Shown here piece after piece: positions 6,645 to 32,059 of a DNA stretch of 64,000 nt (its first letter is position 1; every line of letters starts with the position of its first letter). The stretch comes from a candidate division FCPU426 bacterium (GTDB lineage: Bacteria; Oederibacteriota; Muellerivitia; Muellerivitales; Muellerivitaceae), in NCBI GenBank assembly GCA_963738405.1, contig CAVTWJ010000009.1, positions 32,001 to 96,000 of the forward strand, written 5' to 3'. Under the pieces are notes generated by a model. It saw only the letters and a program-made list of their open reading frames with translations. It had not been told where the DNA came from and searched no databases. The position numbers and the translations under genes are program-made.

Positions 6645-8152
6645 ATCCTAACGGGCCGATCCTACTCCTTCTTCTGCCCTGGGTGGGCGCCTTGCTGACC
6701 CTGGGGGCGGCTTTTCTTTCCCGCCGATTATGTTCCCTGATTTATCTCGCGGCCTTGGGGCTGGACGGCTGGATTCTTTTTCAAACCTTTACTCCGGTTC
6801 TTACGAACGGATTTTTGAATTACCAGTTAGGAGGATGGGCCCCGCCCTGGGGGATTGAGCTGGTGGAAACCCCCTTCAACGCCTTGCTTTGCGGTTTTGT
6901 CCTGCTGGTAGCTTTCTCAGCCTGGTTTTACGCCCGAAGGCTCCGCCTGCCGGGGCCCACGGGGGCAAGACGCGAACGATGGCTCCTTTCCCTCTTTTTG
7001 TTTCTTACCGGGACCGCCTTGGGGCTTTTGCTTTTACGGGACGCCTTTTCCCTTTACCTGCTGTTGGAAGCCCTGGTGATTTTTGGAGCGGGGACGATCC
7101 TCCTCCTCAACCCTAAGGGCGCGCTGGACGCCTACCGGCTTTTGCTTTGGGGCAGCGCCGCCGCCACGCTTTATCTTTTGGGAGTGGTTTTTCTCGCAGC
7201 CTCGGCGGGAACCGTCCAACTGGATGACATTCTTGCCCAGCTCTTTACCTCCAAGACCCCGGGCGTGGCCCTGGCCGCAGGGTTTTTAACGGTCTTTGCC
7301 TGGGCCTTCCCGGCCCTATTCCCCGCGCCGGCCCTCTATAGCCGCCTCTTAAACCACACCCCCTCTTTCGTCACCGGCTTTCTGGTTTCCTTGGGGGCTA
7401 GGGCTACGGGCTACCTTTTATTCGTGTTGTGTTTCTTCACCCTGAATGTGCCGGGGCTTCTTTTACCCCTCGGGGCCGAGGCGCTTCTTTACGGCCTCGT
7501 TCTCTTTTTCTTTTCCGGATTTGTCTTGGCCCCGCGCCAGAAAGATTTTCAACAGGCCATGGCCTACTTGGCCGTGGCGCAGGGCGGATACCTTTTGGCG
7601 GGTTTTATTTTGGGCAACAAGAGCGGCCTGGCGGGAAGCCTGCTGGAATTGTTAAGCCAAACCCTGGCCGTGGCCGGGTTGTTCTTCGTGTCGGAGAGCC
7701 TGCGCCAGGGCGCGGGGCCCCACCCCCTTTCCCGGATGATCGGCCTGGCCCGGCACCGCTTCTGGACCTGGACGGCGCTGATGGTTTTTCTGGCCTCGGC
7801 GGTGGGCGTCCCGCCCACGGGCGGGTTCTTCGCGAAGTTCTATTTATTCCAAGGCGCCCTGGAAAAACACGACTGGGTCCTGCTGGCGATTCTTTCCGCG
7901 GCGGCCATCTTTAATCTTTATTACCTGGGCAAATTTACCTTTTACCTTTGCGAGCACCGGCCTTCGGTGCCCGACCTGCCGCCCCCCTCTTTTTCATCCC
8001 TGTTCCCCATCATGGTTTTGGCGGCGGGGGTTTTGTTGCTGGGGGTTCTGCACCAGGAAGTGCTTCAAACTTTTGTGGAGCCGGCCCTGCCCAGGGCCTT
8101 CCAAAACCTGCCGGTGCCCAATGTGCCCTTCCTGGGCAAGGCTGTTGAATAA
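6641..8152 (+). CDS. mrpD: MrpD/MnhD (complex I antiporter-like) subunit, divergent
   Basis: YQLGGWAPPWGIE, FSLYLLLE and GVPPTGGFFAKF motifs; about 14 TM helices. Confidence 0.8.
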   Translation: MNPNGPILLLLLPWVGALLTLGAAFLSRRLCSLIYLAALGLDGWILFQTFTPVLTNGFLNYQLGGWAPPWGIELVETPFNALLCGFVLLVAFSAWFYARRLRLPGPTGARRERWLLSLFLFLTGTALGLLLLRDAFSLYLLLEALVIFGAGTILLLNPKGALDAYRLLLWGSAAATLYLLGVVFLAASAGTVQLDDILAQLFTSKTPGVALAAGFLTVFAWAFPALFPAPALYSRLLNHTPSFVTGFLVSLGARATGYLLFVLCFFTLNVPGLLLPLGAEALLYGLVLFFFSGFVLAPRQKDFQQAMAYLAVAQGGYLLAGFILGNKSGLAGSLLELLSQTLAVAGLFFVSESLRQGAGPHPLSRMIGLARHRFWTWTALMVFLASAVGVPPTGGFFAKFYLFQGALEKHDWVLLAILSAAAIFNLYYLGKFTFYLCEHRPSVPDLPPPSFSSLFPIMVLAAGVLLLGVLHQEVLQTFVEPALPRAFQNLPVPNVPFLGKAVE

Positions 8153-8201
8153 TCCTCCAACCGCGCCTCAAATCTCCCCTAAAAGCTCAATAACCGCTCC
8201 C

Positions 8202-8233
8202 TTGACTCTAGACTATACTCTAGAGTCTATACT
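8202..8233 (+). promoter_or_regulatory. MerR-family promoter/operator (ZntR/CadR type)
   Basis: TTGACT (8202) - 20 nt - TATACT (8228). A perfect 9-bp dyad gactctaga-N6-tctagagtc (8204..8227) fills the long spacer. Confidence 0.9.
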
Positions 8234-8251
8234 TTCTTCAGGGAGAGCCCC

Positions 8252-8641
8252 ATGGAACAAATCCAAGTCAGCCTGCAGATCGGCGAGGTCGCCAAGGCCA
8301 GCGGACTTTCTATCCATACCATCCGCTATTACGAAAAGGAGGGGCTGCTCAAAGAGCCTTTTCGAAGCGGGGGCGGTTTCCGGCTTTACCCTGGTGAAAC
8401 CGTAGATCAACTGCTTTTCATCCAGAAGGCCCAGGGTTTCGGGCTGACCCTGAATGAGATCAAGCAAATCATGTGCTGCGGGGACCAGGGGCTGGGCCCC
8501 TGCTGCGATCTGACGGTGGACCTGTTCGCGAAAAAAATTGACGAGTTCGAGGCCAAGATCAAGGAACTGCAGGGCATGAAGAAGAAATTGAAGACCGTGT
8601 TGGGAAGCTGGGTGGGAAAGAAAAAAAGTAAGGGAGGCTGA
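8252..8641 (+). CDS. MerR-family transcriptional regulator with CC-x7-CC motif
   Basis: IGEVAKASGLSIHTIRYYEKEGLL and FRLY HTH; C75/C76/C84/C85; coiled-coil C-terminus. Confidence 0.92.
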   Translation: MEQIQVSLQIGEVAKASGLSIHTIRYYEKEGLLKEPFRSGGGFRLYPGETVDQLLFIQKAQGFGLTLNEIKQIMCCGDQGLGPCCDLTVDLFAKKIDEFEAKIKELQGMKKKLKTVLGSWVGKKKSKGG

Positions 8642-8642
8642 T

Positions 8643-9083
8643 ATGGCGCAAAAGGTCTTGATTCTCTGCACAAAAAACTCCTGCCGGTCCCAAATGGCGG
8701 AAGGGGTTTTAAAACATTACGGCGGCGATAAGTTCATCGTCGAGAGCGCGGGCTTGGAGCCCACCCACGTCAACAAGAACGCCATCAAGGTGATGGCGGA
8801 AATCGGCATCGACATTTCGGGGCAACATTCAAAAGACGTAGTCGATTTTCTCGGGGATTACTTCGGCTACATCATCACCGTCTGCTCCGACGCGGATCAA
8901 AGATGCCCTATCTTCCCTGGGGTATCCAGGAGGCTCTATTGGCCCTTTAACGACCCGCCCCAGACGGAAGTGGAAACGCCGGAGATTCTGGATGAGTTCC
9001 GGAAGGTGAGGGACGAGATCGTCGTAAAGTTCAAGGAAGTCGCTGAGAAGGGCTTCCCGCTTATCGCCGAGTCGAAGGGTTAA
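8643..9083 (+). CDS. arsC: Arsenate reductase, thioredoxin-coupled LMW-PTP type
   Basis: CTKNSCRSQMAEG P-loop plus TVCSDADQRCP resolving cysteines; ars context. Confidence 0.9.
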   Translation: MAQKVLILCTKNSCRSQMAEGVLKHYGGDKFIVESAGLEPTHVNKNAIKVMAEIGIDISGQHSKDVVDFLGDYFGYIITVCSDADQRCPIFPGVSRRLYWPFNDPPQTEVETPEILDEFRKVRDEIVVKFKEVAEKGFPLIAESKG

Positions 9084-9104
9084 AAATTCGAGGAGGAGTC
9101 TGGA

Positions 9105-9953
9105 ATGGAAAATCATCCCGCCGAGTCTGAAAAGATCAAATCCGCCGTGAGGGAAAGATACGGCAAGATCGCCGAATCAGCCCAGCCGACCTCCTGCTGC
9201 GGGATGGAAGAATCCCAAACGCCTTCTTCCTGCTGCGGGGGAGGGGAAGAGAAGGGCGGGTTCTCCTACAGCTTCATCGGGGAAGATTACCAGAAGCTTC
9301 CGGGCTACCAGCCCGAGGCGGACCTGGGGCTGGGCTGCGGCCTTCCCACCGAATTGGCGGTTATCCAGGAGGGGGACCATGTCCTTGACCTGGGGAGCGG
9401 GGCCGGCAACGACGCCTTCGTGGCCCGCCGGATCGTGGGGGAAAAGGGCCGGGTGACCGGCGTGGATATGACGCCCCAAATGATCGAAAAGGCGAAAGCC
9501 AACAGCCAAAAGCTGGGTTATGCCAATGTGGATTTTCTTCTAGGTGAAATCGAAAAACTTCCCTTAGCTGACGGCACGGTGGATGTGGTGATCAGCAATT
9601 GCGTCCTGAACCTGGTGCCTGACAAGGCGCAAGCCTTTAAGGAAATCTTCCGGGTGCTCAAACCCGGGGGCCATTTCAATGTTTCGGATATCGTGCTGGA
9701 CCGGGAATTGCCCGAAAAACTCCGCAGGGAAGCCGAACTTTACGTGGGTTGCGTTTCGGGAGCCAGCCGGCGGAGTGAATATTTGGAATTGATTCAAAGC
9801 GCGGGTTTTAAAGATGTCCGGGTTCAAAAAGACCGCCGGGTGGATGTTCCGCAGGAAATCCTGAAGAAGTACCTGAGCCAAGCTGAATTGCGGGAAATGG
9901 AAGCGTGGGGCTTAGGCATCGCCAGCATCACGGTTTGGGGCGTGAAGCCTTGA
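9105..9953 (+). CDS. arsM: Arsenite S-adenosylmethionine methyltransferase
   Basis: LGLGCGLP, VLDLGSGAG, ISNCVLNL and YVGCVSGA motifs; N-terminal CC pairs. Confidence 0.93.
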   Translation: MENHPAESEKIKSAVRERYGKIAESAQPTSCCGMEESQTPSSCCGGGEEKGGFSYSFIGEDYQKLPGYQPEADLGLGCGLPTELAVIQEGDHVLDLGSGAGNDAFVARRIVGEKGRVTGVDMTPQMIEKAKANSQKLGYANVDFLLGEIEKLPLADGTVDVVISNCVLNLVPDKAQAFKEIFRVLKPGGHFNVSDIVLDRELPEKLRREAELYVGCVSGASRRSEYLELIQSAGFKDVRVQKDRRVDVPQEILKKYLSQAELREMEAWGLGIASITVWGVKP

Positions 9954-11047
9954 AACCGGCGGCCCCAATAGCCGGCAAGGGGAAGAACGCCACGGGCCTA
10001 GCCGCCAAGATGAACATTTTCGAGCGGTACCTATCCCTATGGGTCGCTCTTTGCATGGGTTTAGGCATCCTCATCGGAAAATTTTTTCCCCAGGTCGTTA
10101 CCTCCCTTCAAGGCATGGAATTCGGCACTGGAAGCCATATCAACATTCCCATCGCCATTCTCATCTGGCTGATGATCTACCCCATGATGTTGAAGATTGA
10201 TTTTGCGTCCCTCAAAGGCGTGGGGAAGAAGCCGAAGGGTTTGCTGGTGACCCTTTTCGTCAATTGGCTGGTCAAACCCTTTTCCATGGCCCTCTTCGGA
10301 TGGTTGTTCCTCAAAGTTCTCTTCGTCCCCTGGCTGGGGCCCGAGATGGCCAACCAATATCTGGCGGGGGTCATTATCCTGGCCGCCGCTCCCTGCACGG
10401 CCATGGTTTTTGTCTGGTCCTATTTGGCGGGCGGGGACGCGGCCTATACCCTGGTTCAGGTTTCCGTGAACGACCTCATCATGTTGGTGGCTTTCGCCCC
10501 GATCGTGCGGTTCCTTGTGTCGGGCGCCTCGGGGTTGGAAGTGCCTTTCCAGGTTCTTTTATATTCGGTGGTCATCTTTGTGGTGATCCCCTTAAGTCTA
10601 GGGGCTTTGAGCCGTTGGACCCTTATTCGGGCCAAGGGCGCCAGATGGTTTAATGAAAAATTCATGACCTTCTTTCATCCCCTCACCATCCTGGCCCTGT
10701 TGGCCACACTGGTTTTAATTTTCGCCTTTCAGGCCGGGAACATCACGAACCGCTGGGTCGATGTGTTCCTCATCGCCATCCCGATCCTGATCCAGGTCTA
10801 TTTCAACGCGGGTTTGGCCTACGGTTTGATGAAACTTTTTAAAGTGCCCTATCCGGTGGCGGCGCCGGGCGCGTTGATTGGCGCCTCGAATTTCTTTGAG
10901 TTGGCGGTGGCGACCGCCATCGCGCTTTACGGGCCCGGAAGCGGGGCCGCTTTGGCGACGGTGGTGGGGGTCCTAGTGGAGGTTCCGGTCATGCTATCGG
11001 TTTGTTCCATTTGCGTTTCGAGTAAAAAATGGTTTGAAAAGGGCTGA
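9950..11047 (+). CDS. acr3: Acr3-family arsenite efflux transporter
   Basis: FERYLSLWV, AAPCTAMVFVWS, GASNFFELAVA and VEVPVML motifs; start is TTG 9950 (coupled to arsM) or ATG 10010. Confidence 0.95.
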   Translation: MKPAAPIAGKGKNATGLAAKMNIFERYLSLWVALCMGLGILIGKFFPQVVTSLQGMEFGTGSHINIPIAILIWLMIYPMMLKIDFASLKGVGKKPKGLLVTLFVNWLVKPFSMALFGWLFLKVLFVPWLGPEMANQYLAGVIILAAAPCTAMVFVWSYLAGGDAAYTLVQVSVNDLIMLVAFAPIVRFLVSGASGLEVPFQVLLYSVVIFVVIPLSLGALSRWTLIRAKGARWFNEKFMTFFHPLTILALLATLVLIFAFQAGNITNRWVDVFLIAIPILIQVYFNAGLAYGLMKLFKVPYPVAAPGALIGASNFFELAVATAIALYGPGSGAALATVVGVLVEVPVMLSVCSICVSSKKWFEKG

Positions 11048-11067
11048 CCCCGAAAGTGTTTTTTGTT

Positions 11068-11093
11068 CCAAGACCCTGCGGGTCTTTGGTTTT
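11068..11093 (+). terminator. Possible intrinsic terminator after acr3
   Basis: ccaagaccc-tgc-gggtctttgg hairpin followed by tttt. Confidence 0.45.
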
Positions 11094-11099
11094 GACTTT

Positions 11100-11174
11100 C
11101 TCTTTCCGCCGGTCAGGTTTGCGGGGCCCACTGGAACGGGCAGCTCCACCCGTAAGTCCTGGCCGGGGAAGGAG
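11100..11174. other. Long GC-rich stem-loop with potential pseudoknot (REP-like element or structured RNA)
   Basis: Stems ctctttcc/ggaaggag, ccggtcagg/cctggccgg and ttgcggg/cccgtaa enclose gccc-actggaac-gggc; loop tgga can pair with downstream tcca. Confidence 0.5.
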
Positions 11175-11234
11175 TTTTCAACCGCTTGATTTACGATGGC
11201 GCTCGTCTCAAATTAAATCATGAAGGAATAACCC

Positions 11235-11636
11235 ATGAAAAAAATCCTTTTTCTCTGCGTGGCCAATTCGGCCCGGAGCCAAATGGCCGAAGGGTTAGCC
11301 AAGGCTTACTTTGGGGATCAGGCCCTCGTTCAAAGCGCCGGATCCAAACCCTCGAAGGTGAATCCCTACGCCGTCATGGCGATGGCTGAAATCAACATCG
11401 ACATTTCCAAAAACCGGTCCAAGTCGGTGGAAGAGATCGACCCTTCCACCGTGGACACGGTCATCACCCTTTGCGCCGAGGAGGAATGCCCGGTCTTTTT
11501 AGGAAAGGCCGAAAGGTTCCATTGGGGCCTTCCAGACCCGGGCGTGGGAAAAAACACCGATGAAGAAAAGCTTCAAAGCTTCCGGGAAGTCCGCGATGAA
11601 ATAAAAAAAAGAATTGAAGCGCGATTTCCCAAATAA
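11235..11636 (+). CDS. arsC: Second LMW-PTP-type arsenate reductase
   Basis: [22 protein letters not shown] and HWGLPDP motifs. Confidence 0.88.
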
Positions 11637-11643
11637 AAAGGGA

Positions 11644-11886
11644 TTACAGAGTCTTGTGGGTGCCGTCGCAGTAGGGCTTGTTCTTGGAATGCTTGCACTG
11701 GCACAAGAAGGCGGTCTTGGTTTCCTCGGCCTTGAATACGATAGGCGCAAAACCCTCGTGTTCCTTATGGCTTCCGTCGCAAAAGGGCTGGCTCTTGGAA
11801 TAACCGCAGGCGCACCAGGCGTAGGTTTTTCCGGATTCCAACTCGACCTTGGCGGGGAATTTGGCGGCGATATTCGGCTCGGACAT
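11644..11886 (-). CDS. CDGSH iron-sulfur protein with two CDGSH motifs (MiNT-like)
   Basis: WCACGYSKSQPFCDGSH and LCQCKHSKNKPYCDGTH. Confidence 0.93.
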   Translation of the reverse strand: MSEPNIAAKFPAKVELESGKTYAWCACGYSKSQPFCDGSHKEHEGFAPIVFKAEETKTAFLCQCKHSKNKPYCDGTHKTL

Positions 11887-12123
11887 AGGGGCTCTCCTAA
11901 AATTTTTTCGACAAACTCAACAGTCCCTTCATGCTAGGGAGCCTGCCTGTTAAATACAACCTCCCGGCTTTTATTGCGGTTACGAAAGGGTAACAATCTT
12001 TCATCTTTCTTTTGAAACCTGAAAAAACCTATTGGTGTGGGTAAAACCCATTGTTAGAGTTAAAGTAGTGTTTAGCCCTGCGTTCATACATTCCCAGGGC
12101 GGCAACAACGCCAAGGATCACTT

Positions 12124-31528: not shown

Positions 31529-32059
31529 TTATTGCCCGTTTATTGTCGGCGGTTGGAGGGGGCGGCGCCATTCGGCCAAATCCTCAGGGAGGGGTGGGGA
31601 AGCCTGTTGAAAACCCACGACGGAAAAAAGCTCCTCCGTTGAGACCTTTCCCTTCGGTCCCAAAAACAAACCCTGAACATAGGCCCGCGCGCAGAGCTTT
31701 CCTTCCGACTCGAATTCCTGGCGCAGGTAAAGCCACTTCTCATCCCAGGCGATGAGCTGGGTTTTAAGCAGGTAGGACCGGAAGGGCCGTAGTGGGCGGA
31801 AATAGCTGATCCGGGCCGCGCCCAGCACGGGAAACCAATGGTTTTTCAGGATGGAGCGGAGAAACCCCGCCCGCACCACCAGGTCAAAACGGCCCAGGTC
31901 CATCAGGGTCAGGTACCGGCCATTATTCATGTGCAGGTTATTGTCCAGGTCCGTCGGCCAGACCCGGCCGGCCAGGAGGGAAGTTTCGTTCAACCTCAAT
32001 TTTCCGGGTTTTAAGAGAAGAATTAAAATGAGTTTTAAAAGTCTGAAATAGAGGTTCAT
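31529..32059 (-). CDS. Hot-dog-fold thioesterase family protein
   Basis: RVWPTDLDNNLHMNNGRYLTLMDLGR motif. Confidence 0.9.
   Translation of the reverse strand: MNLYFRLLKLILILLLKPGKLRLNETSLLAGRVWPTDLDNNLHMNNGRYLTLMDLGRFDLVVRAGFLRSILKNHWFPVLGAARISYFRPLRPFRSYLLKTQLIAWDEKWLYLRQEFESEGKLCARAYVQGLFLGPKGKVSTEELFSVVGFQQASPPLPEDLAEWRRPLQPPTINGQ

Follow-up and report, generated by a model that had tools for sequence, protein, structure and literature searches.

In the 64,000-nucleotide stretch of DNA analysed here (the window; positions 32,001 to 96,000 of contig CAVTWJ010000009.1, assembly GCA_963738405.1, of a candidate division FCPU426 bacterium), an arsenic (ars) operon at 8202-11636 is headed by a gene for a MerR-family regulator (8252-8641, + strand, 129 amino acids; Pfam PF13411, PF00376 and PF09278). 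The gene product is interpreted as an activator sensing trivalent arsenic, a reading to which sequence comparison lends a probability of roughly 0.65; the effectors would be arsenite, probably antimonite and perhaps methylarsenite. An earlier note on this DNA had proposed an arsenite- or organoarsenical-sensing MerR protein, and the comparison with relatives supports it: the cysteines are conserved, and the co-occurrence of such cysteine-site MerRs with ars genes and the operator dyad, the check suggested in that note, was found in 38 of 38 loci and at 36 of 37 promoters. The analysis established directly that the protein belongs to the MerR family, how its promoter is built and conserved, which cysteines recur, that regulators of this type are tied exclusively to arsenic genes, and that they are kin to mercury-type MerRs; effector, ligand set and activation are inferred.

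The gene context of related regulators was compared in 79 loci fetched from species-representative genomes and 80 from metagenome contigs. Regulators were classed by their cysteines, and loci by the arsenic and mercury genes that tblastn detected in them, the queries having been named beforehand by Pfam and NCBIfam. The resulting table comprises 120 loci at an identity of at least 45%, which were judged where at least 300 nucleotides (nt) were available downstream; the two collections overlap in part (L008 and L105, for example, represent the same DNA), so that the counts are not all independent. Genes for ArsC, ArsM, Acr3, an MIP channel and the ArsI/CadI enzyme were counted as arsenic genes (the glyoxalase-fold genes scored 144 and 139 bits as ArsI/CadI, cut-off 116), and those for MerT-MerP fusions, MerC, small thioredoxins, DF-family proteins and CopZ-like chaperones as mer-type genes. 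Regulators with C76 and C84/C85 and without a C-terminal cysteine were found in 45 loci, 38 of which could be judged, and arsenic genes follow in every one of them. No mer, cad, znt or cop gene stands behind any of these 38 regulators. The seven remaining loci of this type are too short to judge, with the start of an arsenic gene visible in five, and three N-terminally cut copies (L127, L144 and L161) are also arsenic-linked. A C-terminal cysteine near residues 132-134 is present in the regulators of 70 loci; among the 62 judged, mer-type genes follow in 52, arsenic genes in three (L010, L011 and L032), both in two (L018 and L130) and neither in five. L048 and L056, which complete the 120 loci, show neither cysteine feature and neither kind of gene downstream. 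Since the operon of L033, a locus with the C-terminal cysteine, ends in a true mercuric reductase (MerA; TIGR02053, 559.4 bits against a cut-off of 454.45), at least part of the mer-linked group is a real mercury system. In the hybrid operons L018 and L130, the regulator has a C-terminal cysteine and lacks C76, and the genes behind it encode a MerT-MerP fusion, a CopZ-like iron-sulfur chaperone and ArsC. At L032 (5213-7830), AhpC, an ArsM-like methyltransferase and a radical-SAM/DUF3641 protein are encoded downstream of a C-terminal-cysteine regulator, an arrangement that may resemble arsenosugar-type gene pairs.

The regulator of the window has cysteines at positions 75, 76, 84 and 85 only. 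Its C-terminus (...GSWVGKKKSKGG) is free of cysteines, none being found after residue 85, just as the earlier note had described. The CC-x7-CC site claimed there holds family-wide for C76, C84 and C85, and C75 turned out to be variable. A homologue search among 5.8 billion proteins listed 120 homologue clusters with 56-100% identity; C-x7-CC is present in 119 of them (read from the listed cysteine positions), the full CC-x7-CC including C75 in 85. In an alignment of 89 sequences, no exchange occurs at G80, L81, P83, C84 or C85, while C76, G77 and W120 are conserved to at least 90%, which disposes of the objection that the cysteines might not be conserved among ars-linked homologues. Given the full conservation of C84 and C85, the near-full conservation of C76 and the presence of C75 in part of the clusters only, the conserved unit is best described from these alignments as the three cysteines C76, C84 and C85, with C75 as a frequent addition. 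The homologues are currently annotated as 'Zn(II)-responsive regulator of zntA', 'copper efflux regulator' or 'heavy metal-responsive'. Two of the homologues, P0012 and P0023 (both with identities to the query in the 80% range), share the same longest contig size of 1,287,077 bases and may be paralogues of one genome.

Genes arsM or arsI were found behind CC-x7-CC regulators in 17 of 27 loci and behind x-C-x7-CC regulators in none of nine (Fisher p = 0.0012). The product of arsM makes methylarsenite and that of arsI breaks it. In four to five phylogenetically independent pairs, the association of C75 with arsM or arsI pointed in the same direction throughout or was neutral, the median sign-test p of 0.25 being not significant, and the link is regarded as a lead only.

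The promoter ahead of the regulator gene was read from the sequence and comprises a -35 hexamer TTGACT (8202-8207, + strand) and, 20 nt further on, a -10 hexamer TATACT (8228-8233, + strand). The spacer holds a 24-bp palindrome, the putative operator (GACTCTAGA-CTATAC-TCTAGAGTC, 8204-8227), in which 11 of 12 positions pair outward from the centre. Section 3.2.3 of a 2024 review gives a spacer of 19-20 bp for canonical MerR-type promoters (PMC11672702), and the hallmark of such promoters, an operator dyad within a spacer of this length, is found here. A Shine-Dalgarno-like GGGAGAG (8241-8247, + strand) lies 4 nt ahead of the ATG, and the distance from the -10 hexamer to the start codon is 18 nt, with 15-19 nt in most relatives. 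A sigma-70 scan of 8000-12100 yielded no promoter-like site with a normal spacer of 16-18 nt. The dyad pattern was matched once in the window at up to three mismatches (0 expected from 100 shuffles) and, at up to six mismatches, once in the 3.18-Mb genome in an anchored scan, which scored only those 24-mers that contain either of two core five-base words. Because only one copy was obtained genome-wide in this anchored scan, the regulator seems to have a single target, the dyad at 8204-8227.

The architecture TTGAYN-20 nt-TAnnnT with an internal dyad was looked for in 37 non-redundant arsenic-context loci whose upstream DNA measures 70 nt or more, and 36 of them show it. The 37 comprise 36 loci of the clade of arsenic-linked regulators described below, 35 of which show the architecture, and L032, which lies outside the clade; the exception is L006 with AATTCT as the -10 hexamer. 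The same architecture with its dyad is also present in 46 of 47 mer-linked loci, and the spacer measures 20 nt in all 94 relatives in which the motif was found. The operator core CTnGAGTATACTCnAG and the dyad centre are common to the arsenic clade and its nearest mer-linked relatives; as judged from these sites, the sensor appears to have changed while DNA recognition stayed the same.

The N-terminal winged helix-turn-helix typical of MerR proteins was recognised in the regulator by PF13411 (63.7 bits, cut-off 21.6) and PF00376 (59.8 bits, cut-off 28.2). PF09278 (50.9 bits) and a model helix at residues 81-120 correspond to the long helix 5 of the MerR fold, the dimer itself being predicted. 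An AlphaFold2 model based on 89 homologues (mean predicted local distance difference test score, pLDDT, 81.5) contains the canonical MerR helices, with helix 4 at residues 67-77 and helix 5 at 81-120. In this model, C75/C76 are placed at the end of helix 4 and C84/C85 in the first turn of helix 5, i.e. at the predicted hinge that joins the DNA-binding domain to the coiled coil. No match to the ArsR-type winged helix (PF01022, HTH_5, or PF12840, HTH_20) was found in the regulator with Pfam; the protein may work like ArsR in what it senses, and by its domain matches it is not a member of ArsR/SmtB. A Lys/Arg-rich C-terminal tail encoded at 8609-8638 (GKKKSKGG; KKKK or KRKRR in relatives) is kept in arsenic- and mer-linked clades and might contact DNA.

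The best sequence match among solved structures is the Hg(II)-MerR of Bacillus megaterium (4ua1, E 1.5e-19). Of the three cysteines conserved in Hg(II) MerR, two belong to the C-terminal metal-binding loop and the third to the N-terminus of helix 5 (PMC11672702, section 3.2.3.3). Only this third one has a counterpart in the window's regulator: C84 aligns with the Hg ligand Cys79 of 4ua1 at the start of helix 5. The other two ligands have none, the regulator ending before the loop. In an alignment of the L013 regulator with 4ua1, the conserved tryptophan stands on Cys114, and W120 of the window's regulator reaches the same position by gap-free extension of its own alignment with 4ua1. The regulator lies below the cut-offs of all metal-specific MerR equivalogs of NCBIfam, with 87 bits for the Hg(II)-responsive MerR (TIGR02051, cut-off 150.85) and 79.6-84.9 bits for ZntR, CadR-PbrR and CueR (cut-offs 143-168); the C-terminal Cys/His cluster that forms the loop of the last three is absent. 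With Foldseek, the top matches were CadR, PbrR691, CueR and MerR (probability 1.00; template modelling score approx. 0.7-0.78 for the first three), and NmlR and SoxR were also among the matches.

The kinship to 4ua1 bears on the possibility that a soft metal cation (Hg(II), Cd(II), Pb(II) or Cu(I)/Ag(I)) has remained the effector of the regulator, as in its relatives, and that the arsenic genes are simply co-regulated with metal stress. Hg(II) can be bound by three cysteines, and the operator is almost identical to that of the C-terminal-cysteine relatives, which head MerT/MerC/MerP operons, one of them with MerA. However, the metal-binding loop, and with it two of the three canonical ligands, is deleted clade-wide, the metal-specific equivalog scores are far under their cut-offs, and the 38 judged loci are free of mer, cad, znt and cop genes. 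Continued sensing of a soft metal is thus considered unlikely.

The Foldseek matches to NmlR and SoxR, together with the redox reactivity of vicinal cysteine pairs, would also fit a thiol-redox or electrophile sensor whose cysteines form disulfides or adducts under a stress that arsenic also causes, without direct arsenic binding. SoxR-type redox sensors carry a C-terminal CX2CXCX5C [2Fe-2S] motif. This motif is absent from the sequence of the regulator, which scored 44.8 bits with the SoxR equivalog TIGR01950 (cut-off 116.9), and the conserved unit consists of three cysteines rather than two pairs. MerR-family members sensing oxidative, carbonyl and nitrosative stress are described in section 3.2.3 of PMC11672702, but the operons found here carry arsenic-specific functions only (Acr3, ArsM, ArsI, ArsC and MIP), and their first positions are free of redox-repair genes. 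A redox sensor is given as little credence as a soft-metal sensor, and direct sensing of trivalent arsenic is preferred to both.

In a tree of 135 distinct proteins, all 40 arsenic-linked proteins of the window's type fall into one clade (Shimodaira-Hasegawa-like approximate likelihood ratio test, SH-aLRT, 91). This clade lies inside a 72-row clade (SH-aLRT 96), the other branches of which are mer-linked with MerT/MerC operons. Between the 72-row clade and the distant heavy-metal MerRs, more mer-linked clades are located; the MerA-bearing L033 lies outside the 72-row clade, and the cyanobacterial MerRs of the sample fall in the distant outgroup. The arsenic clade was again monophyletic in a 67-row subsample (LG+G4, SH-aLRT 90). 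Its nesting in the mer-linked group is favoured, not proven. C-terminal cysteines are found both in the mer-linked ingroup and in more distant MerR relatives and, because both carry them, their loss in the arsenic clade is the derived state whichever tree applies.

Several observations weigh against a MerR-type arsenic sensor. Three thiolates also suit Hg(II), Cd(II), Pb(II) and Cu(I), and sequence alone leaves the effector unfixed. The pLDDT drops to about 70 around residues 71-90, which include the cysteine hinge. All members found stem from metagenome-assembled genomes or metagenome contigs of uncultured bacteria. A topology with the mer-linked ingroup as a separate sister clade was not rejected by the approximately unbiased (AU) test on the 67 rows (delta log-likelihood 17.25 worse, p-AU 0.179). 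The most basal arsenic-linked members, L010 and L011, keep the C-terminal cysteine and show a weak ArsR/HTH_20-like open reading frame (ORF) just upstream of the regulator (L010:5294-5632, 27.2 bits; L011:5347-5775, 21.9 bits); their regulators may be transitional forms. Moreover, five HTH_5 (ArsR/SmtB-family) matches are located on other contigs of the genome, which is 90.7% complete.

The last two observations and the incompleteness of the genome would fit a MerR-like protein that only autoregulates or represses, with arsenic control exerted in trans by one of the five ArsR/SmtB-family proteins. The four of them that were read contain 2, 1, 1 and 0 cysteines and no CVC, CCx5C or N-terminal CC arsenite site; the fifth match, L084, is weak (22.7 bits), its residues lying outside this cysteine check. 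Gaps of 1, 21 and 56 nt within the operon are too small for a second promoter. Among the 66 small flanking ORFs scanned in 39 other loci of the clade, only the two of L010 and L011 are ArsR-like, and none of the other four of the 70 unassigned small flanking ORFs, scanned earlier, is ArsR-like. Regulation in trans is accordingly judged very improbable. The earlier note had placed a MerR-family sensor at the head of an ars operon free of ArsR; promoter, dyad and genes are indeed all present, and no HTH_5 (ArsR) match was found on the window's 374-kb contig (C9). No second arsC or acr3 was found elsewhere in the genome by tblastn with ArsC1, ArsC2, ArsM and Acr3 of the window (other ars gene types were not searched), and 8202-11636 is the only ars cluster obtained with these queries.

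For the favoured arsenic-sensing activator, a mechanism can be drawn by analogy with MerR, CueR and ZntR. A dimer would be bound to the 24-bp palindrome in the over-long 20-nt spacer of its own promoter, keeping the promoter weak. Arsenic would be bound by the three thiolates of C76, C84 and C85 at the hinge between helix 4 and helix 5, with C75 as a fourth in the CC-x7-CC subtype. Arsenite sensors use three thiolates including a vicinal pair, as in the CCx5C site of AfArsR, and three ArsR lineages built S3 sites independently, according to section 3.2.2.3 of PMC11672702. Binding would shift the two DNA-binding domains, so that the spacer would be under-twisted and the -35 and -10 hexamers brought into register; a domain shift, spacer under-twisting and activation are described for MerR-type activators (PMC11672702, section 3.2.3). 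The merR-arsC1-arsM-acr3 transcript would be turned on, arsC2 would be reached via read-through, and arsenate would be sensed only once basal ArsC has reduced it. It is possible, if rather doubtful, that a mercury sensor gave rise in this clade to the first arsenic sensor of the activator type, the ligands having moved from the inter-subunit loop to the intra-subunit hinge between helices 4 and 5, with a CC-x7-CC variant tuned to methylarsenite. If true, allosteric control in the MerR family would have a new entry point in the ligand site at the hinge.

Downstream of the regulator gene, four genes with arsenic functions are encoded on the + strand. The first, arsC1 (8643-9083), encodes an arsenate reductase of the low-molecular-weight-phosphatase type (PF01451) with cysteines 9, 14, 81 and 88; its TIGR02691 score of 133 bits is below the NCBIfam cut-off of 174.3. 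It is followed by arsM (9105-9953), encoding an arsenite S-adenosylmethionine methyltransferase (NF008823, 342.9 bits, cut-off 263) in which Pfam recognises a methyltransferase domain. ArsM is short (282 amino acids), and its vicinal cysteine pairs 31-32 and 43-44 near the N-terminus echo the CC pairs of the regulator. The third gene, acr3 (10010-11047), encodes an arsenite efflux permease (TIGR00832, 372.2 bits, cut-off 282.8, with the match starting at residue 1; Pfam SBF), and the last, arsC2 (11235-11636), a second arsenate reductase of the low-molecular-weight-phosphatase type (LMWPc; cysteines 8, 80 and 85).

The genes were described as tightly spaced in the earlier note, which applies to the first four (1 nt between merR and arsC1, 21 nt between arsC1 and arsM, 56 nt between arsM and acr3) and not to arsC2. 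Because of these short gaps, merR-arsC1-arsM-acr3 can be regarded as one transcription unit. The gap of 187 nt between acr3 and arsC2 (11048-11234) holds a terminator-like hairpin (AAGACCCTGCGGGTCTT, 11070-11086, + strand) followed by a T-rich tail, which was found by a consensus scan yielding eight such sites in the region, with 8.1 expected in shuffles. The same arsC2 paralogue is found at most 15 nt after acr3 in the relatives L002 and L003. ArsC1 and ArsC2 share 44.5% identity, and in several relatives (L001, L002, L003 and L089) ArsC1 consistently comes first and ArsC2 last; the divergence and the kept order suggest different roles or redox partners. The GC content of the operon (0.545) matches that of the whole window (0.542). 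An 80-amino-acid protein with two CDGSH iron-sulfur zinc-finger motifs (PF09360, 82.9 bits) is encoded at 11644-11886 on the - strand, convergent with arsC2 and with 8 nt between the ends of the two genes. No RNA data are listed over 8150-11700, for which there are two soil DNA runs only, each holding small shares.

By the standard account, it is ArsR repressors that sense arsenic in ars operons. A MerR-family arsenic sensor was not found in the full-text literature searched, including passages of PMC10433974 and PMC7965956, subscription journals being outside its coverage. In PMC10433974, MerR2 sites are only predicted, before an arsR gene in a Pseudomonas, and section 3.2.3 of the 2024 review (PMC11672702) names Hg, Cd, Pb, Co, Zn, Fe, Ni, Au and Cu as metals sensed by MerR proteins, arsenic not being among them there. 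The MerR-headed arrangement, shared by dozens of uncultured bacteria, is probably an undescribed kind of arsenic-activated switch. If so, a metalloid would join the list of MerR-sensed effectors, and effector specificity would be seen to change by relocation of ligands with the DNA operator unchanged. Arsenic operons seemingly without a regulator would be explained, and the present annotations of these regulators would be affected. An activator-type part for arsenic biosensors would also become available; tightness and sensitivity are commonly ascribed to MerR-type switches.

Among known systems, the Hg(II) MerR of Bacillus megaterium MB1 (4ua1/4ua2) and that of Tn501 (5crl) resemble the window's regulator in their fold with the long coiled coil of helix 5, in the position of merR as first gene of the operon, in the over-long spacer enclosing a dyad and in the cysteine at the N-terminus of helix 5 (C84, equivalent to Cys79). 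In contrast to them, the window's regulator is devoid of the metal-binding loop with its two Hg ligands, carries W120 in place of Cys114 and has two or three new cysteines at the hinge (C85, C76 and often C75). Furthermore, its operon consists of ars genes (arsC, arsM and acr3) instead of merT, merP, merC or merA, so that control of mer genes, as exerted by these MerRs, is not seen here. CadR, PbrR, ZntR and CueR (6jni, 5gpe, 1q05) are similar as top structural matches, by their NCBIfam scores of 80-85 bits and by the 20-nt spacer, but their ligands include those of the partner subunit's C-terminal loop, which the window's regulator does not possess.

With the arsenite repressors of the ArsR/SmtB family (R773 ArsR, AfArsR with CCx5C, and CgArsR), the regulator shares the control of ars genes and, as expected, the three-thiolate chemistry. 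Its fold is unrelated, however, and its predicted sensor site is located at a domain hinge; whereas ArsRs are repressors released from DNA, the window's regulator would, by analogy with MerR proteins, be an activator that stays bound. The closest resemblance in the operator is seen with the sister MerR clade that combines (C)-x7-CC with a C-terminal 'VCPQIE' cysteine (L013, L020, L033 and others; 45-65% identity): the operator core, the 20-nt spacer, the CC that opens helix 5 and, in many cases, C76 are the same. The sister regulators differ in a tail longer by approx. 15-25 residues with one cysteine near 132-134, and they head MerT-MerP, MerC and CopZ-like operons (mer-type in 52 of 62), whereas the window's regulator heads an ars operon.

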